NCBI GenBank assembly: GCA_944393245.1
Contig: CALXZM010000005.1
Location: 22,393 to 86,392, forward strand
Direction: 5' to 3'
Source of the DNA: an uncultured Alphaproteobacteria bacterium
GTDB taxonomy: Bacteria > Pseudomonadota > Alphaproteobacteria > Rs-D84
Length of the DNA: 64,000 nucleotides
Part shown: piece by piece, positions 16,493 through 28,669 of the stretch
Numbering within the stretch: the first letter of the stretch is position 1
Layout of the letters: every line of letters starts with the position of its first letter
Translations under genes and position numbers: made by a program
Notes under the pieces: model-generated
Seen by the model: the letters and a program-made list of their open reading frames with translations, nothing else
The model's database searches: none
Told to the model about the DNA's origin: nothing

Positions 16493-17404
16493 TTATTCAA
16501 AATACGAAGCATCAAACTCTTTAATATCGTAGTTCTTTTTCTGCTTTGCCCCCAAATTATGTTCTCTCATTAACCTGGCTAACATCGGCCCGTCAATCAA
16601 AACGATACTATGACCGTGGGCATTTTTTGCACAAGTCTTTGCTTTATCAGCAAATGTAGACGTTGTTATAAACACACCTTTAGACATATTATTTGTAGCC
16701 AAAGCCCCAACAAAGTCTCTCATTTCTACTTCGTTAACCTTACCATCGTTGTATCGTTTTGCTTGTAAATATATCTTAGAAAGTCCTAATTCGTCTTCAT
16801 TGATTATTCCATCTATTCCGCCATCAGCGACAAATCTAGTAACTTCCCCCACTCCGTAATCCATCGCTTCCATTAAATCTATTACAATGCTCTCAAAACG
16901 TTTTGGATCTATAGATTTTAATGTGCCTAATATTTCGTCTTCTAAAGCGACGTTTATCTCGTCTATCGCATCATTTATTCTTTGTTCTGGATCAATATCA
17001 CTATTATCACAAGAAATTTGTTCCGTACGTTCTTCATGACGCTTTTTTGCGTTATCATTTGTCTTTTGCATAAAATCGGCAAAAGCTTTGTATTTCATCA
17101 AAAATTCATCATTTATTTTTTCGCCTGATGCAACAACCCTTAACCCCTCTTCTGTGATTTTATAATATCCACGACTTGGACGTTCCAACAAACCGGCTCT
17201 ATACATAAAATAAGTTGCCCAATATACCCTGCTTTTTACAACACTTTCACCAGACTTTAATACCTGACTTCTATCTTCATCTGACAAACCAAGATTGTCC
17301 GAAACTTTGTCTACAATATCTGTACCTTTAATAACCTCTTTACTCTCTGCAAAAACTTTTAGGCATGGGTTCATAAAATCTTGATAATTTGGCACACTCA
17401 TCAT
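16493..17404 (-). CDS. mrr: Mrr type IV restriction endonuclease
   Basis: N-terminal VPNYQDFM/RVYWA wHTH; DGGIDG...IYLQAKRY; KGVFITTS. Confidence 0.9.
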   Translation of the reverse strand: MMSVPNYQDFMNPCLKVFAESKEVIKGTDIVDKVSDNLGLSDEDRSQVLKSGESVVKSRVYWATYFMYRAGLLERPSRGYYKITEEGLRVVASGEKINDEFLMKYKAFADFMQKTNDNAKKRHEERTEQISCDNSDIDPEQRINDAIDEINVALEDEILGTLKSIDPKRFESIVIDLMEAMDYGVGEVTRFVADGGIDGIINEDELGLSKIYLQAKRYNDGKVNEVEMRDFVGALATNNMSKGVFITTSTFADKAKTCAKNAHGHSIVLIDGPMLARLMREHNLGAKQKKNYDIKEFDASYFE

Positions 17405-17490
17405 AAATCCTTTAACTATTTCTATAACACTGATGTAATCGTCATAGTTTAAGATATTATAACATATTTAACAACAAAATCCGCACTAAA

Positions 17491-17646
17491 TTATTTATTC
17501 CAATTTTGATAAATTAAAATAAATCTATTTAAATCGTCTTTTATTGATCACCGTTTTGGTAAATTTGTATCAAGCACATTTATAAAGTGCTCATTATGTG
17601 TTCTTTCAATCAAATGAATTAGTTCATGAACAACTACATATTCAAT
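17491..17646 (-). pseudogene. C-terminal remnant of a YgjP/DUF45-type metallopeptidase
   Basis: IEYVVVHELIHLIERTHNEHF...LPKR* (HExxH), no N-terminus, internal TGA at 17548-17550. Confidence 0.65.
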
Positions 17647-17661
17647 ATTTACGTATACAAC

Positions 17662-18343
17662 TTAACTTTCAATTGGCTCATAGCCATTTTCTGAAATATA
17701 TTCATCAAAAAATACGAAATCTGGTTTAGCTTTTAAAAAATCAATATCTGTTTTTGATAAATAAAAATCTCAGATTAACCCTGAAATTTTATAAAACTTT
17801 TCTGTTTGATCCATTTCTGCACGTATTTCGTCTGCATGTTTTATAAATCTATCAGTTGGATGTGAAAGCAATTCATAAAATGCAGCAGATTGGATTTCCT
17901 TTAATACATTTATAGATTTTTCTATATATTTATCAATTTGTTCTTTTGTTAAAACGTCACCAGTAAAATTCCCTTTGCTTTACCAAATCCATATGATCAT
18001 TTTTCACTGTTTCTGAAATTCTACGACCAAATAGCCTAACACGAGATTTTTCATCCCCTACATCAGAATAAATAGCGGGTGTTAAATCTGTTATAGGGGC
18101 GCGCCCGCTTCTGCAAGAATTAGCAACATCAACATCCATTCTATGATACTTTAATACATACATATGAAATATTGCCATGTATAATTGATGATATGAAAAT
18201 AAGGCAAGATTATAAAAACCACGTTCATAGTGATAAGCAAGATCTTCTTGGTATTTATACAAATAGTCAATAGTATCGTCAAGTGGGGGCAATAAATCCA
18301 TCAATAAATAGACAGGATTATCATTAGAATACTCAACTATCAT
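17662..18343 (-). pseudogene. Disrupted RM-associated hypothetical gene
   Basis: ORF ends KQREFYW*; another frame continues GNFTGDVLTKEQIDKYIEK... with one internal TGA, to TAA at 17662. Confidence 0.55.
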
Positions 18344-18345
18344 CG

Positions 18346-20826
18346 TTACATATCACACTTGTAAATACGGTTTATAACCTGGTTGATTTTATCTTGCATT
18401 AAATCAATCAAGCGTTTATTTGCATCAATAATTTCCTGTTCCGCTTCCAATTTTGCAACTATACGCTTCTGGTCGTCAATGGATGGCAATGGAATTGATA
18501 ATTGCGCAAAATTTGTTTTTGATATTTCTTTGAATGTTCCGCCAGATGCATTTTGTTCCATCTCGTGCTTTTTTTGTAACATAGCATAAGCAACATATTT
18601 TGCATCAACCACATCTTTATTTAATACAATTATATTTTTAAAGCCCTGATTTGTTGCCAACGGTATTTTTGCTAATCCAACTCTACCTATCGTGGCTCTG
18701 CTTGATACGACAATAGTGTCAACAGGTAATAATTTTGCAGACGAATGCTTTAAACCTTGTTCGGATATAGTTTTTACTGTGCTTTGAATAATATTAACAT
18801 CTTTATCATCTGTTACATCTGCTAAACTTATCCAGTTTATGCTGCCATCCCAAAATTCATCGTTTGTTGTTAATGGGGTTCCACCAGATTCAATATTGAA
18901 GTATTTTTTATCGCCCAATTTGACTTCGTTGTAATCTATGCCGTCAAGAAGGCAGGCAAAATATTGTCTCTCTCTCTCTAGATTTTTAATGATTTCACGC
19001 GCATGGTTGATTGCGGATTGCTTATTTTCGATTTCATCGACAATCTGTTGTTGCACATCCAACGGTGGGAGTGGGATATCGTAATTTTGCAACCAAACTG
19101 TGCTTAGATTCTTTTGCGCTATACCACCAGATGATTCAATACAATCGTGTTCAAATTTGTCTTGGTTTAACACACTGAAAAGATACCCTTTCAAAATTTT
19201 GGTTTCATCAGGTCTTAAACATGCAACGCGTTGATTCAATCCTGCAGGTAATAATTCCTTTGGCAACAAACCAACACGCCCGACATTACCCGTTAAAGAT
19301 ACAAGTAAGTCATTTTCGCGTAACATATAATTTTGTATTTCTGTTTGTTTGTCCAGAGGATAAAATTTTGGGTTATCATCAACAATTTCGCCTTTTTGCA
19401 CATTGGTTATACGCATTACACGAATACCTGTATCTGTATATAATTCACTTTTAAACGCATACCCATTTAACAATTCGCAAACATCACCCAATTTAACCAT
19501 TTCGTATTTACATTCACGGGTTTCTTTTTCGATATATTTCGCAGCGGTTAAATCATAATTGTTTTCTGCAATGCGTTCTTTGGATACAACCATTGCGCGT
19601 TCATAACCAGATACATCTTTACCATCACGGTATTCATTGATAATTTTTAATACTTCTGGTAAATCGTTTTGTTTGATTGGTGTGCGTTGTGCGCCCAGGG
19701 AAAAACCATCATTATCAACACGCACAAACAATATATCTTTATTTTGTTTTGCAAATGCGCGGTCAAAGAATAATATTGATGTTTTTACTCCGGCATATGG
19801 ATTAAATACCCCAGATGGTAATGATACAACCGCATATAAATAACCATCCAACATCATTTTACGCAATTCCTTATATGCGTTTGCTGTTTGAAATATAATA
19901 CCCTCGGGCACAACAAAGCCCGCACGACCATTGATTGTCAAATGTTCCATAAAATAGTCGGCAAACAAAACTTCACTGCGGTTTGCATTGATTGCGAAGC
20001 GTTTATGTGGTGTAATTCCACCCTTTGGCGTCATAAATGGTGGATTTGCCAAAATAACATCATATCGGTCACCCCAACGCGTATCATTGGACAATGTGTC
20101 GTATTCATAAATATTTGGTTGTTCAAATTTATGCAGATAAAGGTTAACCAAACTTAATTTTACCATTGTTGGGTCAATATCCAATCCAACAATGCTGTTT
20201 GTAACCCGTTTTAATTCGTCCGGTGTTAATTTACCGTCTGATGTAATGTGTTTATATGCGGAAATCAAAAATCCCGCCGTCCCACACGCAGGGTCCAATA
20301 TTGTATCGTCCTTGGTTGGTTTAACAACATCAACAATAAAATCAATTATATTGCGCGGTGTGCGGAATTGTCCGGCATTCTTTGCAGTCGCCATTTTATT
20401 CAACAAATATTCAAACGCATCACCAATCGTTTCAGAGTCGTCATATTTTAATTCATTAATTTCCTTTAAAAACAAAGCGAATGTTGTCGGGTCGCGAAAT
20501 GGTATCATTGCTTCTTTGAAAATACGGCGGAATAATTCAGGCACCGATTTTGCAATTTGTACCTTTTCCAAACCTGTCAAATACAGGTTCATCCGTTCTT
20601 GATTACCCTTGGTATTAACAATGGTTGAAAATGCGTATGGTTCCAAATCACCGACAAAAAAAGTGCGTTTGTCCGATAATTCCAATCCATCCAAATCCAT
20701 ATCGTCCATAAATTTATAAATCAATGCGGTTGTAATAATATCAACCTGTGTCTGTGGACTTGGAACTTTACCTACCAGTGTGTCGCAGGCATTATCAATG
20801 GTTTGTTTGGTTCTGGAATCCAACAT
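18346..20826 (-). CDS. hsdM: Fused type I HsdM-HsdS (N6-adenine MTase plus two TRDs)
   Basis: GQFRTP, DPACGTAGFL, NPPF, then two TRD/IPLP-coiled-coil units. Confidence 0.9.
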   Translation of the reverse strand: MLDSRTKQTIDNACDTLVGKVPSPQTQVDIITTALIYKFMDDMDLDGLELSDKRTFFVGDLEPYAFSTIVNTKGNQERMNLYLTGLEKVQIAKSVPELFRRIFKEAMIPFRDPTTFALFLKEINELKYDDSETIGDAFEYLLNKMATAKNAGQFRTPRNIIDFIVDVVKPTKDDTILDPACGTAGFLISAYKHITSDGKLTPDELKRVTNSIVGLDIDPTMVKLSLVNLYLHKFEQPNIYEYDTLSNDTRWGDRYDVILANPPFMTPKGGITPHKRFAINANRSEVLFADYFMEHLTINGRAGFVVPEGIIFQTANAYKELRKMMLDGYLYAVVSLPSGVFNPYAGVKTSILFFDRAFAKQNKDILFVRVDNDGFSLGAQRTPIKQNDLPEVLKIINEYRDGKDVSGYERAMVVSKERIAENNYDLTAAKYIEKETRECKYEMVKLGDVCELLNGYAFKSELYTDTGIRVMRITNVQKGEIVDDNPKFYPLDKQTEIQNYMLRENDLLVSLTGNVGRVGLLPKELLPAGLNQRVACLRPDETKILKGYLFSVLNQDKFEHDCIESSGGIAQKNLSTVWLQNYDIPLPPLDVQQQIVDEIENKQSAINHAREIIKNLERERQYFACLLDGIDYNEVKLGDKKYFNIESGGTPLTTNDEFWDGSINWISLADVTDDKDVNIIQSTVKTISEQGLKHSSAKLLPVDTIVVSSRATIGRVGLAKIPLATNQGFKNIIVLNKDVVDAKYVAYAMLQKKHEMEQNASGGTFKEISKTNFAQLSIPLPSIDDQKRIVAKLEAEQEIIDANKRLIDLMQDKINQVINRIYKCDM
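18967..18979 (-). repeat. (AG)6 simple repeat between TRD1 and TRD2
   Basis: TCTCTCTCTCTCT on + strand, encoding LERER. Confidence 0.8.
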
Positions 20827-20830
20827 TTCG

Positions 20831-23326
20831 CTACCCCATGTATTTATTCAAAACAATGTTTTCTTTGATGTATTCCGGTAAATTTTCGCGGATGTCTTTA
20901 CCCATCAACTTTAAATCCGTCATACTGAATCCAGGAATTTCAGCGTTAAGTCGCGGATATTCCTGTTTTTCTATTATATCACGAAATGTGTTATCTGTAA
21001 CATACAATTTTATAAAATTTTTAATTGAGGGCACTATTTCAGGCGCAGGTTTAACGATGGATATGTATTTATCGCATTCATCTTCTAACATTTCATCACG
21101 TGTTTTAAAGCGCGGTAATAAGCCAAATATATGTTCCAAAATTTCACGCCATGATAAACGACGATCTAGTTTGGTCGCTTTCTTTATCTTTTCCAAATTT
21201 GGATACAATTCTGGTTTGTTTTCATATTTTTCTTTAACCAAGGCCACCGCATAATCCCAATCGGAATTGTCGACCGCATTTTTTATGTCTGCATCGGCGC
21301 TAATTGTTTTTTGGAAATTGCCCCAGAATTCACGGTCAATACGCATGCCATTATCAGGTATAGCAAGTGTTTCCATTTGAACAAGCTTTGTAATTTCTTC
21401 TGATGTCAATGTTGTAAAGGTACGTGCCTGTCCAGAAGTTCCGGCATTAACACCCTTGGATAATTGTGGTAGCTTTAACTGCTGACCATAATCAAATTTT
21501 TCTTCAAAATATTCACAGTTTCCAAAAAAATCAAAAAGTTTAAAGTGTTCTTTTTCCTTTTTTATTTCGTTTTTATCAGCATCAATATACTTGAATGTAT
21601 ATTTTCTAGTTCCACGTCCTTTCATTTGTACAAAATCAGTTGGTGAAAATACCGGGCGCATAAATACTATATTTAATAAATCACTGCAGTCATAACCAGT
21701 TGTCATCATTCCAACAGTTACACATACACGAGTTTTGGACGTATCATAGCCCTCTAAAAATGTAGATTTTCCACCCAGATTATTACTATCTGTCATAAAC
21801 TGGTTCGTCATATCTTGGGCGTTTTGAACATTGCTGGTAACCTGAACCGCAAAATCACTGTTATATTTTCCAGGGAACGCCTGCATAGCAAACTCATTTA
21901 AAATTTGCGTTATCTTGGCAGCGTGCGATTGGCTAACACAAAATACTAATGTTTTTCCAATTTCACCACTAATTGGATCACGTTCTGCATTTTCTAAGAA
22001 TGCTTTGCAAAATACAGCATTTATATTTTCATTAAAAAAGCGTTTTTCAAAATCCTTTACAACAACATCGGCTTCGGCATCTTCGCCATTTTCATCAACA
22101 CCAATGGCATGATAGCCCTTTTCAGATAACATTTGTGTGGTTATATCTGTACGCGCATCAATGGCCATAGGAGCAACCAAATAACCATTTTTTATACCGT
22201 CAACCATTGAATATTTATATGTTGGCGTTCCGCTTTTACAACCAAATGTTTCATATGTATCCAGTAACAATCTGCGCTCAAGAGCTTTTGGGTCATTGAG
22301 CTTTATTTTATCAACATCCACATTTTTAATGTAATCACGCGGCGTCGCAGTTAAGCCCAATTTATACCCAATAAAATATTCAAATACAGCACGACTATTG
22401 CCGCCAATTGAACGATGTGCTTCGTCGGATATAATAAAATCAAAATCAGTTGGCGAAAACTTTTTATATTTATCGCTTGCCATCAATGTCTGAATAGTTG
22501 AAACAACAATATCCGCCTTGTGCCATTCTTCAGACTTTTCTTTATAAATAACAGTTATAAAATCGCACAAATAATCATTAAAATTTTTCCACGCTTGCTG
22601 TTCCAATTCAATACGGTCAACAAGGAATAAAACCCTGTGCGCATGTCCGGTGCGTAATAACATTTGAATTATTGCACCAGCCGTCAATGTTTTTCCCAAT
22701 CCAGTCGCCATTTCAATCAAAAATCTGTCTTTACCGTCTGCGATTGCTTGTTGCACTGCACGAATAGCACCAAGTTGATAATCACGCAATATACGCAAAC
22801 CATTATTCCAACAATATGCACCACGAGTTTCTGAATTCTGATATTCTGGAATGTCCAACAAACGCGGATTCTTCTGTAATGCTACATATTCTGGAATTAT
22901 ATTTTCTTTCATTATATCTTTGGCGCTTGGATCAAAACCACTGCGCATTTCCAAAGATTCTTGTGTTGGTATCTGTGTTATAATTTGAGGATTCCCAGAC
23001 TTAATATCCCACAAATAATAAATTTCACCATTTGATAAAATAACAAATCTTATAGTATGTTCAACCGCATAACGACGCGCCTGTTCTTTTGCGCTCAATG
23101 GATTTATGGACGGCTTTTTCGCCTCTATAATACACAAAGGGAAACCATTTGAATCCAACAGTTCGTAATCAGCAAATCCCACATCAACCTTTTGTTCAAC
23201 GTTCACGTTGCGCTTATGATCTGGGGTATCTGTCAAAAACCAACCCGCATCATGCAATTTCTGATTTATCTTCAATCGTGCGTACGCTTCATTGTCATCA
23301 CGCAGCTTATCAAATGTCATTGTCAC
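20831..23326 (-). CDS. hsdR: Type I restriction enzyme R subunit
   Basis: ADY...IIEAK nuclease, MATGLGKT, DEAHRS, QMKGRGTR. Confidence 0.92.
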   Translation of the reverse strand: MTMTFDKLRDDNEAYARLKINQKLHDAGWFLTDTPDHKRNVNVEQKVDVGFADYELLDSNGFPLCIIEAKKPSINPLSAKEQARRYAVEHTIRFVILSNGEIYYLWDIKSGNPQIITQIPTQESLEMRSGFDPSAKDIMKENIIPEYVALQKNPRLLDIPEYQNSETRGAYCWNNGLRILRDYQLGAIRAVQQAIADGKDRFLIEMATGLGKTLTAGAIIQMLLRTGHAHRVLFLVDRIELEQQAWKNFNDYLCDFITVIYKEKSEEWHKADIVVSTIQTLMASDKYKKFSPTDFDFIISDEAHRSIGGNSRAVFEYFIGYKLGLTATPRDYIKNVDVDKIKLNDPKALERRLLLDTYETFGCKSGTPTYKYSMVDGIKNGYLVAPMAIDARTDITTQMLSEKGYHAIGVDENGEDAEADVVVKDFEKRFFNENINAVFCKAFLENAERDPISGEIGKTLVFCVSQSHAAKITQILNEFAMQAFPGKYNSDFAVQVTSNVQNAQDMTNQFMTDSNNLGGKSTFLEGYDTSKTRVCVTVGMMTTGYDCSDLLNIVFMRPVFSPTDFVQMKGRGTRKYTFKYIDADKNEIKKEKEHFKLFDFFGNCEYFEEKFDYGQQLKLPQLSKGVNAGTSGQARTFTTLTSEEITKLVQMETLAIPDNGMRIDREFWGNFQKTISADADIKNAVDNSDWDYAVALVKEKYENKPELYPNLEKIKKATKLDRRLSWREILEHIFGLLPRFKTRDEMLEDECDKYISIVKPAPEIVPSIKNFIKLYVTDNTFRDIIEKQEYPRLNAEIPGFSMTDLKLMGKDIRENLPEYIKENIVLNKYMG

Positions 23327-23429
23327 AGCCTTTTACTTTGATAGGAATAATTCTAACAGGCAACACCCTAAAAATCAAGACACCGCTAAAACACAATCCA
23401 TTTTTTCACGCCTTTTATTTTACTATAAT

Positions 23430-23460
23430 CTTGACTTTCTTGGAAAGGTAAGCGTAAATG
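23430..23460 (+). promoter_or_regulatory. Island backbone motif, copy 1 (CTTGACTT-N12-AAGC..TAA.TG)
   Basis: Similar to copies at 25632 and 27032, each just upstream of a + strand gene. Confidence 0.55.
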
Positions 23461-23485
23461 CGGCAACTGATTAAAGGGGCGTTGA

Positions 23486-23695
23486 ATGAAGTATAAATCT
23501 TACGAAGATATCAAGCCAAACAAAATTTCTACCTGCAGTATGCTTTATTATTGTGCTTGTCGCATTTTAAATAAAATGGAGCATCGTATTAGGCGCCGTA
23601 ATGGTGGCTACCTGCCCTGCCGCGACAGAATCCTGCTACGTCGTCTGCACCGCAAAATTACCCAACTGACCGCAGTATATAAAAATAAAACATAA
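23486..23695 (+). CDS. Small basic hypothetical protein
   Basis: 69-aa ORF with AGGGG RBS, behind the backbone motif. Confidence 0.5.
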   Translation: MKYKSYEDIKPNKISTCSMLYYCACRILNKMEHRIRRRNGGYLPCRDRILLRRLHRKITQLTAVYKNKT

Positions 23696-23708
23696 TTAAA
23701 ATAACGCA

Positions 23709-25250
23709 TTATTTATGACTAGCTTTTAGCTGTCTCATAAAGCCCTTAAACTTTACATCTTCTTTATCTATCAAATCCTTAACCCTATTAAAGTGGTTTC
23801 GTAATTGTTTTTTTAGAGGGGCACTTTCCATAGTCTTAAATGCCCGCCTAGTATACGCCCAAAAATTTCGGCTACCTAAGTGAGTATACGTCTTATATAA
23901 AGTCTTTCTATACAGCTTTTCAGGAAACAAATTTATATCATATCCAGATTCTAGCAGCTTTAAAATCTTTCTTTGTGTCGCAAGACGCATAGACTTTATT
24001 CCTCGCTTTGATTTCCTCAAATATCTAGCATAACTACTACCTCTAATCCTAACATTTTTTCCATCAAACGTAAAACCTAGATATTGTAAAGGATCTTTTA
24101 AAATCTGCTCAGATGTAAAATCATAGCACCTGCTTTTAGATTTTTCTCCTTCAATAATAGGATGTATATATAAATGCTTACCACGCTCGCTAATAGCTTC
24201 CATCACAAATTTTGTAATTTGTTCCTTTTTATCTGCATCACATATTATCAAAATATCGTCAGAATAGCGTCGATACACAGCGCCATTTGATTTACAAAAA
24301 TCATTCATCTTTTTATCAAATGGAAGCATATAAATATTGGCCAACAAAGAAGATAAAGAAGATCCCTGAGGTATTCCAAAAGGATTCTCTTTATCCAAAA
24401 GCCCCGGATTAATCTCAAAAGCATATTTGCTTAGACCGCATATAGCATCGTCTTTTCCTGCCCACACATTTTTATATTGTTTATACCATTTCTTAAACTT
24501 TCTAAAATCTTCCTTATTTTTAAACAAGACTTTCGGAAGTAGTCGCCTATTCACAAACCTACAATCCACACATCCTTTTTCCACTGGATTAGCAGCCTCA
24601 CACAATATATAAATGGCCAACAATCTAACGTCTACGAAACTATAATTCGTCAAAGATTTATATATATTAAAATGATCTTCCGGCAAAAAAGAGTCTTCAA
24701 ATCCCAACAAATTTGCCCATTCTTTTTTTAGATTTTTATGATCTATATTGTCATAAAAACTTTTTATATCAAAAGCCAACGCGACGCAATTACAATTACG
24801 ATTTTTTATTTCATTAAAAACCTCATAAGCCGACGATATGTTATCAGAACACCTTTGCATATAGCTAGATTTTCTGTAAGCTATAACCACATCTCCTATA
24901 CCTAATTTCTTTACTTTGTCTTCATATTTTTCATACAAAATGGCAGCATAGTAAGAATATATTAAAGAATCCACATGCGAAGCATACCTTATGGGCCGTT
25001 TTTTTATTATCGAAGATTGCTCTGCATACTTCTTAGTTTTATCAATTTTTGAAATACGTCGCTCCAAAATATCATATCCAATAAAAGGGAAAAAGGCATG
25101 TTTTGCTATACGCTCTCTATCCTCCAAAAAAGAAATTAGCTTTTTTGCCTCAGGGAATAAACACTTTTTATCACATACATTCAAAGGATAATCAAAATGA
25201 GTATATTTTTTAGTATGCTTATTAAAAAAAGTGAGCCAGTCTATTGTCAT
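23709..25250 (-). CDS. DRT2 (UG2)-type defence-associated reverse transcriptase
   Basis: YTHFD, HAFFPFI, RPIRYASHVDSLIYSYY, FDIKSFYDNIDH, GIPQGS, YRRYSDD, LQYLGF; ATG 25250 preferred over TTG 25286, which lies inside the ncRNA hairpin. Confidence 0.9.
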   Translation of the reverse strand: MTIDWLTFFNKHTKKYTHFDYPLNVCDKKCLFPEAKKLISFLEDRERIAKHAFFPFIGYDILERRISKIDKTKKYAEQSSIIKKRPIRYASHVDSLIYSYYAAILYEKYEDKVKKLGIGDVVIAYRKSSYMQRCSDNISSAYEVFNEIKNRNCNCVALAFDIKSFYDNIDHKNLKKEWANLLGFEDSFLPEDHFNIYKSLTNYSFVDVRLLAIYILCEAANPVEKGCVDCRFVNRRLLPKVLFKNKEDFRKFKKWYKQYKNVWAGKDDAICGLSKYAFEINPGLLDKENPFGIPQGSSLSSLLANIYMLPFDKKMNDFCKSNGAVYRRYSDDILIICDADKKEQITKFVMEAISERGKHLYIHPIIEGEKSKSRCYDFTSEQILKDPLQYLGFTFDGKNVRIRGSSYARYLRKSKRGIKSMRLATQRKILKLLESGYDINLFPEKLYRKTLYKTYTHLGSRNFWAYTRRAFKTMESAPLKKQLRNHFNRVKDLIDKEDVKFKGFMRQLKASHK

Positions 25251-25264
25251 TATCTTTTCTAAAA

Positions 25265-25573
25265 CCAAACACCCGAAGGATGCCAAAGTCTGTGCAAACT
25301 ATAACGACATCCTTCGTAAGTCATTCATCAATCCAGATATATAGGATCCGCTTGTCCATCGGTTCCACAACACCACGGAAGGCACTTTTAATGTATTGCT
25401 ATATAATTATACCAGATTAAATCTGCTCAACTATATGGAGGCTATCATGTTTACTTCCCAAATTCTTGGACTTGACATGCTAACATCAACACTTGTCGTG
25501 CTTGTCATAACATTTGTCTTACGACCAATGCTTGACTTTCTTAATCAAGTTCCCCTATTACTAATAATAGGGC
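25265..25573 (-). ncRNA. DRT2 template ncRNA (~305 nt)
   Basis: 5' hairpin GCCCTATTA-TTAG-TAATAGGG (25573-25553); 3' hairpin CGAAGGATG/CATCCTTCG (25274-25316); long-range pair 25314-20/25518-24; same strand as and directly upstream of the RT. Confidence 0.8.
25395..25517 (+). other. neo: 123-nt cDNA repeat unit encoding a hidden neo-type endless ORF (41 aa per repeat)
   Basis: Bounded by TGT (ACA on the RNA) at 25392-94 and 25515-17; -10 at 25402, RBS GGAGG at 25437, ATG at 25447, -35 at 25502; concatemer is stop-free in one frame. Confidence 0.8.
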
Positions 25574-25631
25574 TATATGTATATAAGAACAGCACCACAG
25601 TATTTCAAGCCCCGAAAACAAATTTATTTAA

Positions 25632-25663
25632 CTTGACTTCCCGTGCTTTCCAAGCAGTAATTG
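25632..25663 (+). promoter_or_regulatory. Island backbone motif, copy 2
   Basis: 27/32 identical to 27032-27063. Confidence 0.65.
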
Positions 25664-25702
25664 GACAAACTTAAAAACACAGTAAAAACAAAGGAGTCCA
25701 AT

Positions 25703-25897
25703 ATGCCTAAATATCCTGATATAAAGGTTTATTTAACCAATCGTGATGGTAATGCTTTCGCTATACTTTCGCGGTGTAAAAATGCTCTGGTCTTGGCTGG
25801 GAAAGAAGATAAATGGTCAGAATTCTTGACCGAAGCCACCAGTGCCGATTATCAACACCTGCTTGTCACCGTTATGAAATGGTTTGAGGTTGAATAA
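25703..25897 (+). CDS. Small phage-type hypothetical protein (DGNAF motif)
   Basis: AAGGAG RBS; DGNAFAIL...ATSADYQHLL. Confidence 0.7.
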   Translation: MPKYPDIKVYLTNRDGNAFAILSRCKNALVLAGKEDKWSEFLTEATSADYQHLLVTVMKWFEVE

Positions 25898-26082
25898 TGT
25901 CATATAAAAATCCACCTAAATCAACCAGATTTCATATTGGTACATCTGGCAATCCGTTCGGGCGTATGCCCGTAATTACCAATAAAGACCTGTATCACAA
26001 CTTGCGTATTCTACGGGCATTGATTGATATTGCTATGCAACAGCTACGACAAAAGGGAACCAGTAATGCAACGGAAAGTTAA
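25897..26082 (+). CDS. DUF5681-like protein
   Basis: YKNPPKSTRFHIGTSGNPFGR matches the YxxPPxxxRFxxGxSGNPxGR pattern. Confidence 0.65.
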   Translation: MSYKNPPKSTRFHIGTSGNPFGRMPVITNKDLYHNLRILRALIDIAMQQLRQKGTSNATES

Positions 26083-26512
26083 AGACATTTTACCAAAAAC
26101 ATTTGAAGAGTTGAAAGCGTTATCACAAGATGAGCGAGCACGTTTATGGACACGGTATTCGCCCCACCCTTTTAAGCGACAAATGCGATCGCTTTGGTAC
26201 TATATTCAATGCGAACGCTTAAACCTGTGTATTGAGCCAAAGTTCATCAAGAAAATCAAAAAGTATAAAGATAACCCTGCCGAGTATGTAAATCGTGTAT
26301 TAAAGCATAGGTATAACATTGCGCCCGGCACAACTATCATCAGGCACTTTCGAAATATAGAACACAAGGTCCTGGTCAATTATGACAATACGTTTTTATA
26401 TAACGGGAAACAGTATCGTTCCCTATCCGCAATTGCGTCTGACATTTGTGGTGCGAAGACATCAGGACCACACTTTTTTGAACTGGATAAAAAGTTCTCT
26501 AACTTATTATAG
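26066..26512 (+). CDS. DUF2924-like protein
   Basis: PGTTIIRHF...HKVLV...FLYNGKQYRSLSAIASDICGAKTSGPHFF; upstream of a serine recombinase. Confidence 0.8.
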   Translation: MQRKVKDILPKTFEELKALSQDERARLWTRYSPHPFKRQMRSLWYYIQCERLNLCIEPKFIKKIKKYKDNPAEYVNRVLKHRYNIAPGTTIIRHFRNIEHKVLVNYDNTFLYNGKQYRSLSAIASDICGAKTSGPHFFELDKKFSNLL

Positions 26513-26514
26513 AC

Positions 26515-26973
26515 TTATTTACATTCAAATATGTTATATCTATAAATAGTGCTAGTGTGTGCACCCCAACCAGTCCAACTTGTTAGCTGATCTATACCTG
26601 CTCCCATACCTACTTGCAAAATTCCCCCCTCTTCAAATTGCGTTGGGAAAGATACATCTGAACGACTCAAAACATTTCCGCCTAGCTCAAATGCAATTTT
26701 TTCAATATCTTGATGTGTTGAACCTGATATATGTCCGAGTAAGGAACAAGTTTTCCCCTGGGGTAATCCAGAAGAATAAATATCAATTATATCATATTTA
26801 TATTCCGGTTTCTTTTCAAAAACAGAAAATGACAATGATTCAGAAGACACATAACCATCTAAAAAGCCCCCTTCGCTTTTTATTGTTTTTGTACCGTCAT
26901 AAGGATAAAATTTTGGTGGTACAGAGCATGCCGCAACTAACAAAACAAATAACAGACTACAAACATTTCTCAT
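26515..26973 (-). CDS. Putative lipoprotein
   Basis: Lipobox LVAAC after a hydrophobic signal. Confidence 0.65.
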   Translation of the reverse strand: MRNVCSLLFVLLVAACSVPPKFYPYDGTKTIKSEGGFLDGYVSSESLSFSVFEKKPEYKYDIIDIYSSGLPQGKTCSLLGHISGSTHQDIEKIAFELGGNVLSRSDVSFPTQFEEGGILQVGMGAGIDQLTSWTGWGAHTSTIYRYNIFECK

Positions 26974-27031
26974 ATCAAAACCTCTTCATACGGATTATAA
27001 ACCTATCAATTAAATAAAACAAGTTTTATAA

Positions 27032-27063
27032 CTTGACTTTCTGTGGTTTGTAAGCAGTAATTG
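27032..27063 (+). promoter_or_regulatory. Island backbone motif, copy 3 (upstream of the recombinase)
   Basis: CTTGACTTTCTGTGGTTTGTAAGCAGTAATTG, 22 bp before the ATG. Confidence 0.65.
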
Positions 27064-27085
27064 CAACAACAAAAAGGTGTAAAAA

Positions 27086-28669
27086 ATGTCGGTGATTAAA
27101 TGTGCTGTTTATGTCCGTAAGTCAACTGAACATGGGTTGGAACAAGAGTTTAATTCCCTGTTAAATCAGGAAGAATCTTGTAAAGCATACATTGCCTCCC
27201 AGGCATTTAATAACTGGGAATATGTTAGTACTTATACCGATGCGGCGATTTCTGGCGGAACCATGGAACGTCCCGCATTAAAGCAAATGTTGGACGATAT
27301 TTCCAAAGGGTTAATAAACACCGTTGTTGTGTACAAGGTTGACCGATTGTCTCGCTCTATCTTGGATTTTCACAATATGATGAAGTACTTTAATAAATAC
27401 AGTTGCAACTTTGTATCCACTACGCAGGCATTTGATACCAGTACTTCTATGGGTAAGTTAACGTTGAATATGTTATTATCATTTGCACAATTTGAGCGGG
27501 AAGTTGCCAGCGAACGTGTGCGTGATAAAATACGCGCCAGTAAAGCCAAGGGCTTATGGATGGGTGGTAATCCGCCATTAGGATACGATATAAAAGACAA
27601 AAAGTTGGTTATAAACGAAGCAGAAGCCCAGCAAGTAAAACAACTGTTTGAAAAGTATTTGGAGTTGCAGTCATTTGTTGATACGGCGACTTATGCCAGA
27701 CGAATTGGCATAACAACAAAACACTGGCATACAACAAAAAATAAACCTATGGGCGGACGACCGTTAAAACCGCATAATTTGCACTTAATTCTAACCAACA
27801 AAATCTATATCGGACTAATTACGCATAAGAAACTGGGTACCGCTGTTCGTGGTGAACATAGTCCGATTATATCAGAAGAGTTGTTTAACCAAGTCCAAGA
27901 AATCATAAAATCCAGAAAAAACACCCGTGAAAAGACAAGTCCATCACCAAACATATTTTCAAGCAAGGTGTTTTCGGCATCTGGCGAAAGATTTTACAAT
28001 CAAAGAAGCAATCAAAACCTGTTCTATTACGCAATTAAGGGATTCTATTTACCAGCAGTAAAACTGGACAAGATTGGCATTGATACTATATGCAACTTTT
28101 TGAACAGCGATATGAAAAATCTGCCGACACAAAATGTCAATGCTTTGAAATCCATAAATTTCTGTGATATGGACTACACGCACAAAAAAGAATTTATCGG
28201 CGCATTTGTAACCAGAATCATTTACACTAAAAATCAACTTACGTTTTATTTGAACACTAATCCCGATGACTTGGCCGGTTTTATGTCTGGTGAATATATA
28301 AACCAAAACACGCCAAAGACTGTTGATTACATAGTTTCCGGGAATCAGGTAATTATTACAGTTCCGGTTATATTACGCCCATTTGCAAACACCAGGTTTA
28401 ACAAAGGTAACGATACGATTTTAACTGTATCAGAAAACAACAACCTTATTGTCAAGGCGTTTGCAACTGCGTGGCGATATCGTGAAATGTACGAAAAATG
28501 TGGCGATTCCGATAAAATCATTGCTACAGAACACACATCACCGCGCCAGTTTTACAGATACATTGACCTGGCATATATGAACCCAGAAACCGTCAACCGC
28601 ATCTTATCTGGTCAGCAAAAAGTCAACGTGAATGAGTTATTTCAGATTGCAAAATATAATCATGTATAA
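27086..28669 (+). CDS. Large serine recombinase (integrase)
   Basis: YVRKST catalytic Ser, VVYKVDRLSRS, FAQFERE, GGNPPLGY, GEHSPII. Confidence 0.93.
   Translation: MSVIKCAVYVRKSTEHGLEQEFNSLLNQEESCKAYIASQAFNNWEYVSTYTDAAISGGTMERPALKQMLDDISKGLINTVVVYKVDRLSRSILDFHNMMKYFNKYSCNFVSTTQAFDTSTSMGKLTLNMLLSFAQFEREVASERVRDKIRASKAKGLWMGGNPPLGYDIKDKKLVINEAEAQQVKQLFEKYLELQSFVDTATYARRIGITTKHWHTTKNKPMGGRPLKPHNLHLILTNKIYIGLITHKKLGTAVRGEHSPIISEELFNQVQEIIKSRKNTREKTSPSPNIFSSKVFSASGERFYNQRSNQNLFYYAIKGFYLPAVKLDKIGIDTICNFLNSDMKNLPTQNVNALKSINFCDMDYTHKKEFIGAFVTRIIYTKNQLTFYLNTNPDDLAGFMSGEYINQNTPKTVDYIVSGNQVIITVPVILRPFANTRFNKGNDTILTVSENNNLIVKAFATAWRYREMYEKCGDSDKIIATEHTSPRQFYRYIDLAYMNPETVNRILSGQQKVNVNELFQIAKYNHV

Follow-up and report, generated by a model that had tools for sequence, protein, structure and literature searches.

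Where does the template of a gene that comes into being only through reverse transcription begin, and where does it end? The question is raised by a reverse transcriptase (RT) gene and the non-coding RNA (ncRNA) predicted directly upstream of it in a 64,000-nucleotide (nt) stretch of DNA from an uncultured alphaproteobacterium (hereafter the window; all coordinates are positions in it). To our knowledge, DRT2 is the sole system whose gene exists only after reverse transcription. The rules for such genes derive from one Klebsiella system and its close relatives. As set out in the two reports cited here and below (Tang 2024, preprint PMC11100668; Wilkinson 2024, PMC12039810), the ncRNA encoded ahead of the RT is copied in successive rounds, two ACA trinucleotides set the ends of the repeat, the joined ends restore a promoter with a 17-base-pair (bp) spacer, and the toxic protein Neo is read from a stop-free frame of 111–129 nt per unit on the strand opposite the ncRNA. 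An earlier note on the window, made from its letters, had proposed a Neo gene of this kind with a 123-nt, 41-codon unit delimited by two TGT trinucleotides, which read ACA in the RNA. Our analysis suggests that this interpretation was right in kind and probably wrong in its boundaries: the locus reads as a DRT2/Neo system from a distinct clade of long RTs, and its template would be, with a probability of roughly 0.62, a 153-nt unit bounded by TTAAT (25393–25545).

Judged by its sequence matches, the neighboring gene on the minus strand (23709–25250) is a Drt2 reverse transcriptase, and with it the DRT2/Neo reading of the locus holds. The translated protein matches the PADLOC Drt2 profiles PDLC03757 (E = 2.2e-126) and PDLC02173 (E = 5.5e-105), the Pfam family RVT_1 in a domain search, and the solved DRT2 structures PDB 9c0i and 9lje (E ~1e-64, over two stretches). 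The mechanically called open reading frame (ORF) begins with a TTG at 25286 (23709–25286, minus strand, 525 amino acids (aa)); we favor the ATG at 25250 as the likely start, since the resulting 513 aa match the length of the nearest relatives. The catalytic motif YSDD is present, and its residues Y341, D343 and D344 are invariant in 27 long-clade RTs.

A search for this RT in 400 other genomes of the same phylum returned only three distant matches, too few to compare, and relatives were therefore taken from scans of genomes and metagenome contigs. The nearest of them belong to ‘Candidatus Enterousia’, other uncultured gut Alphaproteobacteria, Gastranaerophilales and similar genomes. The long-clade RTs measure 513–595 aa and are 40–58% identical to the window RT; the Klebsiella-type Drt2 proteins (~430 aa) are ~35% identical to it. 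In a quick maximum-likelihood tree of 51 RTs, unrooted and with Shimodaira–Hasegawa-like approximate likelihood-ratio test (SH-aLRT) support only, one branch (SH-aLRT 100) groups 28 of the 29 RTs of at least 505 aa with one truncated protein, leaving the short RTs and one long-branch 510-aa protein on its other side. On this tree, the window RT belongs to a separate long-RT clade of DRT2. Its extra length relative to the solved structure lies mainly in a larger insertion between residues 225 and 298. This insertion maps to about 24360–24580 on the minus strand of the window, and the two cysteines of a CxxC motif, C239 and C242, are invariant in 27 sequences; for Klebsiella DRT2, a finger insertion is described that docks the 5′ handle of the ncRNA (Wilkinson 2024, PMC12039810).

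Upstream of the RT gene, we queried positions 25251–25700 with a strict test that demanded a direct repeat of at least 3 nt, a promoter spanning the junction of joined units with a score of 11/12 or more, a unit measuring a multiple of 3, and an open frame with a Shine–Dalgarno (SD) sequence and an ATG. Exactly two solutions emerged, the 123-nt TGT unit and the 153-nt TTAAT unit. Any solution at all was found in only 1 of 1000 dinucleotide-preserving shuffles of the region; the permuted promoter and the open frame are real, and far from chance. Both solutions share the –10 box TATAAT (25402–25407, plus strand), the ribosome-binding site GGAGG (25437–41) and the start codon ATG (25447–49), the latter two spanning 25437–25449 on the plus strand and identified by sequence and alignment. 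With the RT and the ncRNA on the minus strand and the frame on the plus strand, the orientation fits the published Neo logic.

The smaller unit (25395–25517, plus strand) is bounded by TGT at 25392–94 and 25515–17 and takes its –35 box, TTGTCA, from 25502–07. Every motif on which the earlier note had built was recovered where it had been placed, including the AAGGCA that occupies the –35 position in the linear sequence (25379–84). Scripted head-to-tail joining of the 123-nt unit likewise gave one stop-free frame, stops in the other five and a 17-nt spacer, and the internal TGT alternatives of 102 and 111 nt exist. Its broader claim, a DRT2 RT with an upstream ncRNA, a permuted promoter, an SD–ATG pair and a stop-free frame on the cDNA (complementary DNA) sense, is thus supported at the level of sequence.

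The larger unit (25393–25545, plus strand) comprises 51 codons that are stop-free in the frame of the ATG at 25447. It is flanked by a 5-nt direct repeat: the TTAAT at 25541–25545 (site 1, plus strand; AUUAA in the RNA) is the proposed end of the cDNA repeat and takes the place of the first ACA (ACA-1), and the TTAAT at 25388–25392 (site 2, plus strand) is the proposed site of re-annealing and takes the place of the second (ACA-2). The –35 box TTGACT (25532–25537, plus strand) lies 8 nt before the unit end and the –10 box, an in-frame Tyr–Asn, 9 nt after the unit start, such that joining across 25545/25393 creates a 17-nt spacer and a promoter, TTGACT-17-TATAAT, that scores 11/12. A consensus scan of both strands of the linear sequence at 25200–25750 returned no σ70-like site, versus 2.1 expected from shuffles. 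As the two solutions differ by exactly 30 nt, keep the same frame and are indistinguishable within the window sequence alone, we compared the relatives.

Upstream regions of the long clade, from the genome and metagenome scans, were grouped as ten lineages: the window; L006/L007; L008; L009 (= L087 = L099); L010/L086; L011/12/13/17/18/21; L014/L090; L015/L019; L020 (probably L088); and L022. Left out were L023, a truncated RT match with unrelated upstream sequence, and L016, with too little upstream sequence. A frame-blind scan, which asked only for a direct repeat of at least 4 nt and a junction-spanning promoter of at least 10/12, returned the same layout in seven of the ten lineages, with 8 nt and 9 nt on the two sides of the junction (8|9). 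The units and their repeats were 153 nt with TTAAT in the window, 159 nt with TTAT in L006/L007, 156 nt with TTTAT in L008, 147 nt with TAATA in L010/L086, 150 nt with AGTTTAT in the L011 group, 153 nt with TTTAT in L014/L090 and 171 nt with TAAC in L020. Two further lineages fit more loosely: L009 has a 141-nt unit with TTAAC and a promoter of 9/12, and L015/L019 have units of 153 and 159 nt with a 3-nt repeat and a 7|10 layout, joined to a perfect TTGACA and TATAAT at a 17-nt spacer. Nine of the ten lineages hence share one order of elements, a –35 box, 7–9 nt, the direct repeat, 8–10 nt and the –10 box, over units of 141–171 nt, with a repeat of 3–7 nt at the same relative position and a 17-nt junction spacer. 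The –35 box, of CTTGAC or CTTTAC type, is conserved across the clade, and the two sites covary among lineages (TTAAT, TTAT, TTTAT, TAATA, AGTTTAT, TTAAC, TAAC). At these recurring boundaries the window carries AUUAA in its RNA and not a flanking ACA, and the 8|9 layout of the window and most of the clade is not the 6|11 layout of the Klebsiella type.

All fitted units are divisible by 3 and stop-free in the frame of the SD–ATG pair, and the unit translations align without a stop in 11 of 11 cases. The SD and ATG are present in the relatives; in the RNA-sense alignment they appear as a conserved CCTCC and CAT. When the test was tightened, so that an open frame with SD and ATG and a unit measuring a multiple of 3 were demanded on top of the 4-nt minimum for the repeat and the 10/12 minimum for the promoter, eight of the ten lineages retained a solution (that of L015 being a different, 99-nt one), versus 1 of 1000 shuffles and none of 10 reverse complements. 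As a positive control, a looser version of this test (with the minimum repeat lowered to 3 nt, and with GTG starts and the AAGG variant of the SD admitted) was applied to 77 genome loci and gave candidates in 46, among them 22 of Klebsiella type with TGT, the 6|11 layout and units of 111–132 nt; 19 of these show the layout directly and three are equivalent TGTTA cases, and one of the 22, a Klebsiella locus, has a unit of 117 nt. Five loci with RTs of Klebsiella length (L040, L042, L054, L064 and L072) had best repeats other than TGT, namely ACAAT (11|6, 162 nt), TAT, CAACG, CTGC and CAAT, and for 29 of the 60 short-RT loci covered by the scan there was no solution. The ACA rule may be looser across DRT2 than in the studied subgroup.

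The unit lengths bear on whether the template is read as protein. In the sequences at hand, their differences show several separate in-frame length changes. From unit start to ATG, the nine fitted lineages measure 42, 45, 45, 45, 48, 54, 54, 54 and 57 nt, and a hand count of the spacing between two –35-like boxes gave 18, 27, 27, 27, 30, 33, 33, 33 and 36 nt; every value is a multiple of 3. Since the leader and the inter-box stretch vary only in this manner, both parts appear to be read through. That the –10 box is always an in-frame Tyr–Asn and that the leader ahead of the ATG is stop-free are explained only by read-through from a preceding repeat. Within the L011 group, 60 of the 150 positions of the unit differ between L017 and L011, yet length and open frame are kept.

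A second line of comparison comes from the ncRNA itself, predicted to span ~310 nt on the minus strand (25251–25574), from just upstream of the RT start to a 5′ end placed near 25574 by the position of its promoter. The putative promoter (25580–25608, minus strand) consists of TTGAAA (25608–03), 17 nt and TATATA (25585–80); its CTTGAAAT block is conserved in a four-sequence alignment, and it is missing from the list of the consensus scan because the last base of its –10 box is A. The homologous upstream regions align with L006–L008, and the fold energy predicted for the ncRNA is low (z = –2.66). Directly downstream of the predicted RNA start, a 5′ handle hairpin (25552–25572, minus strand; 8-bp stem, loop UUAG) ends 6 nt before the proposed template boundary at site 1. 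A 5′ handle has been described for DRT2 (Wilkinson 2024, PMC12039810), and minimum free energy (MFE) folds computed for each lineage predict one at the equivalent position in 10/10 lineages. The gap from handle to boundary is 5–8 nt across the lineages and ~6–7 nt in the Klebsiella type. Beyond the boundary follows the first template hairpin of the MFE fold (25505–25537, minus strand), the 5′ arm of which is the complement of the –35 box and the 3′ arm of which carries the TTGTCA box and ACA-1 of the 123-nt solution. It is also predicted in 10/10 lineages, with arm sequences that differ (GUCAAG, GUAAAG, UGCAAG).

At its other end, the ncRNA would close with a 3′ scaffold hairpin (25275–25316, minus strand) with arms GAAGGAUGUC and GGCAUCCUUC, followed by a U-rich tail; eight of its nine predicted pairs show compensatory changes across ten sequences, and a scan placed a terminator-like site at 25284–25268. 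Whole-length RNAalifold on ten divergent ncRNAs recovered only this 3′ hairpin, the middle part aligning poorly, and the per-lineage folds were used instead. By predicted fold, the RNA upstream of the RT thus has both a 5′ handle and a folded 3′ scaffold. A search of 23000–27500 against Rfam with E up to 1 returned no family, the chance match psRNA6 scoring 14.6 bits versus a gathering threshold of 60.

Taken together, these comparisons favor the 153-nt unit over the 123-nt unit of the earlier note, in which the same DRT2/Neo mechanism would jump at the TGT/ACA pair (25392–94, 25515–17) and produce repeats of 41 codons with TTGTCA (25502) as the –35 box. The smaller unit has real merits. It is one of only two strict solutions in the window, with an 11/12 promoter, a 17-nt spacer and an open frame; characterized DRT2 uses the ACA motif (PMC11100668; PMC12039810); and a 5-bp stem at 25510–14/25390–94 beside ACA-1, found by eye, resembles the published basal stem. 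However, its repeat is only 3 nt long, and homologous long-clade loci do not conserve it: of 11 long-clade sequences, the window is the only one in which a TGT pair encloses an open frame and yields a promoter scoring 10/12 or better. The TGT/ACA boundaries chosen in the earlier note, its length of 123 nt and its 41-aa peptide are not supported. The homologous TGT pair of L008 is 122 nt apart and out of frame, and L006/L007 have none. The stretch left outside the 123-nt unit still varies only by multiples of 3, as expected if it is coding, and the two sites proposed for the 153-nt unit change together between lineages.

The RNA architecture points in the same direction. In 10/10 folds the order is handle, boundary, hairpin, as it is for the Klebsiella-type boundary 6–7 nt from the handle. 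ACA-1 of the 123-nt solution is instead buried in the 3′ arm of the conserved predicted hairpin, as is the TTGTCA box, ~34 nt from the handle. Closeness to the 5′ handle, along with a pseudoknot, is the suggested cause of the choice of the flanking ACAs in Klebsiella DRT2, where internal ACAs go unused (Wilkinson 2024, PMC12039810). The 123-nt solution also has a 10|7 layout, at odds with both the 8|9 of the long clade and the 6|11 of the Klebsiella type. We therefore regard the 123-nt boundaries as unlikely, and prefer the 153-nt unit.

Several points weigh against the 153-nt assignment. The flanking ACA pair of characterized DRT2 templates is absent at the proposed boundaries, and the 123-nt TGT solution is valid, has an equally good promoter and resembles the published ACA rule. 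One lineage, L022, misfits: a 17-nt spacer makes its unit 154 nt long, and a 16-nt spacer leaves it without an open frame; the –35 box of L009 (TTGCAG) is weak; and as the lineages are related, their counts overstate independence. Substitutions between close relatives are mostly non-synonymous. For the window locus as for every long-clade locus, what goes beyond sequence anatomy is inferred.

The character of the peptide is relevant to a further alternative, that the cDNA of the long-RT clade is untranslated and serves another use, with the promoter and frame pattern a by-product of constraints on RNA structure. Counts of synonymous and non-synonymous changes among close relatives gave no sign of selection at the peptide level, and with most changes non-synonymous, the evidence for coding lies in stop avoidance and length rather than in peptide conservation. 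The near-invariant residues of the unit, Y4, N5, M19 and L47, map to the –10 box, the start codon and the –35 box; a tracing of conserved residues to promoter elements is also described for Klebsiella-type Neo, as is a hydrophobic-codon bias (Wilkinson 2024, PMC12039810). Poor conservation of the peptide and the double role of the –35 box as a hairpin arm suit an untranslated cDNA, and divergent DRT2 clades are those in which Neo annotation is harder and alternative mechanisms have been raised (Tang 2024, PMC11100668). Yet RNA structure alone does not predict length changes in multiples of 3, one frame without stops across 141–171 nt of AT-rich DNA, a conserved SD–ATG pair or a constant 17-bp spacer, and we consider this explanation distinctly unlikely. 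The earlier note had singled out the product as a strongly hydrophobic, divergent Neo; with a grand average of hydropathy of 1.05, the window unit falls within the range of four Klebsiella-type units (0.73–1.27), and hydrophobicity does not set it apart.

Very unlikely, in our estimate, is that no concatemer gene exists and that the frame belongs to an ordinary small hydrophobic protein encoded antisense to the ncRNA, from an ATG at 25435 or 25447 to 25674. Gene callers do record this linear ORF, and a public protein collection lists its product, unnamed, at 75 or 79 aa (start at 25447 or 25435, end at 25674, plus strand). The earlier claim that annotation would miss the gene is thus correct for its repeat nature and incorrect for the frame itself. 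The frame stays open 42 codons past site 1 in the window, and at least 11 codons past the junction in 8/8 lineages examined. However, the linear sequence has no promoter-like site upstream, and a linear gene does not explain why, in every lineage, the 42–57 nt ahead of the ATG lack stops and keep the frame of the –10 box, nor why joining end to start always yields a 17-bp spacer and a multiple of 3; moreover, the tails after site 1 are short in the relatives (11–24 codons) and end in the ncRNA promoter. The recorded protein is probably an artefact of reading the template linearly. In 8/8 lineages the open tail past the unit end (25546–25674 in the window) runs through the 5′ handle to the ncRNA promoter; it could have arisen by chance and been inherited, or represent a tail produced when the RT reaches the 5′ end of the RNA.

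Equally little credence is due to a mixed scheme, in which the RT of the window strain jumps at either TGT (123 nt) or TTAAT (153 nt) to give mixed in-frame repeats: both solutions pass the same window test and differ by exactly 30 nt, and L008 (123 nt, CGTTG) and L006 (126 nt, GTT) hold a second in-frame solution with an inner –35-like box, but an in-frame offset is expected anyway with the hairpin lying inside the coding unit, these second solutions differ in motif and layout from lineage to lineage, and the junction of Klebsiella DRT2 is uniform (Tang 2024, PMC11100668).

A working model for the 153-nt system follows Klebsiella DRT2. A single minus-strand promoter near 25608–25580 would transcribe the ~310-nt ncRNA together with the RT gene, and the RT would copy the template part of the ncRNA. 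Synthesis would continue round and round to yield tandem 153-nt repeats of 25393–25545. After second-strand synthesis, each junction, as joined in silico, would set TTGACT 17 bp upstream of TATAAT and link 51 stop-free codons in frame behind GGAGG and ATG. The concatemer alone would then be transcribed and translated into an endless hydrophobic Neo that would arrest the infected cell. The RT family, the anatomy of the unit, its rarity by chance and its recurrence in relatives are observed in the data; the other steps of this model are carried over by homology to Klebsiella DRT2.

Set beside that system (KpnDRT2), the window locus shares a UG2/Drt2 RT, an ncRNA encoded just ahead of the RT gene in the same orientation, a 5′ handle hairpin separated by a few nt from the template boundary, –10 and –35 boxes in permuted order that reach 17 bp by head-to-tail joining with an SD–ATG pair after the –10 box, a unit divisible by 3 with one stop-free frame, and a hydrophobic, poorly conserved repeat peptide, the conserved residues of which stem from promoter elements. 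It differs in an RT that is ~90 aa longer, with the larger insertion at residues 225–298, and that lies across a fully supported branch from the short RTs in the quick tree; in the proposed flanking repeat, AU-rich and 3–7 nt long in the long clade (TTAAT in the window) versus TGT/ACA; in the 8|9 layout versus 6|11; and in long-clade units of 141–171 nt versus 111–132 nt. As with telomerase and DRT10, a nascent DNA end would re-anneal to a second copy of a short template sequence, an analogy with telomerase already drawn for DRT2 (Wilkinson 2024, PMC12039810). In those enzymes, however, the repeats are a few nucleotides long and non-coding, whereas the 153-nt repeat would hold a promoter and a frame. 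In circularized insertion sequences, too, the –35 and –10 boxes lie at opposite ends and form a promoter only once these are joined, a comparison made in both DRT2 papers (PMC11100668; PMC12039810); their ends are joined by DNA excision and circularization and not by reverse transcription, and no endless frame results.

Four of 24 public sequencing runs, all of them in the form of assembled contigs, were inspected for joined repeats. Contigs of the runs X18, X19, X20 and X2 over 24900–25700 contained no such joints, contigs being unable to show rare junctions. A 441-nt contig of X20 matches 25443–25674 with 11 differences, and its 209 nt left of 25443 are unrelated to the window. The break at 25443 was considered as a repeat junction and rejected, as it runs into unrelated sequence; the contig may come from a strain whose template differs in one half, or be a chimeric assembly.

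The RT gene adjoins a defense island at 16493–23326, in which domain searches identified an Mrr-type restriction endonuclease (16493–17404), a type I N6-methylase fused to two specificity domains (18346–20826) and a restriction helicase of ResIII/HsdR type (20831–23326). The source genome measures only 926,511 bases in seven contigs at an estimated completeness of 96.6%, yet has kept this multi-system island. On the other side, beside the ncRNA promoter, the plus strand encodes a DUF5681 protein (weak match), a DUF2924 protein and a large serine recombinase (25897–28669), the last with Resolvase and Recombinase domains (27086–28669, plus strand, domain search). From this arrangement, the DRT2 cassette may border or ride on an integrative element. 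A promoter-like block of ~50 nt (AACTTGACTT...GCAGTAATTG) occurs at 25610–25705 and 27016–27063, the only two copies in the genome, and precedes a small-ORF operon at 25703 and the serine recombinase gene, respectively. In a chicken-gut metagenome run, the depth over 25629–25700 was 316–435, versus 12 at the DRT2 locus, and many contigs end at ~25615–25652; the block may serve a widespread mobile element as a shared regulatory or terminal sequence.

What does the locus imply for DRT2 as a family? Among the papers covered, a literature search returned no description of a non-ACA DRT2 boundary or of the long clade, with the proviso that fig. S6 and Table S1 of Tang et al. may cover the clade. 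On balance, and with somewhat better than even confidence, we propose that the long DRT2 clade, present in gut Alphaproteobacteria, Gastranaerophilales and other groups, makes its neo genes independently of the ACA rule. The template would then be delimited by whichever short, AU-rich direct repeat stands at a fixed distance from the 5′ handle, the promoter layout would be shifted to 8|9, the units would comprise 47–57 codons, and the RNA architecture rather than the ACA sequence would set the boundary. The TGT register of 123 nt, also in frame, might exist alongside it in the window strain. Such a rule may also apply to the divergent clades that Tang et al. found hard to annotate for Neo. The long clade would thus keep the permuted promoter, the in-frame endless ORF and the handle-adjacent boundary of DRT2, with other repeats in place of ACA and a shifted layout. 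If this is confirmed, direct repeats together with promoter layout could suffice to predict neo genes in divergent DRT2 clades, and the finding would suggest that RNA–protein architecture sets the template boundaries.

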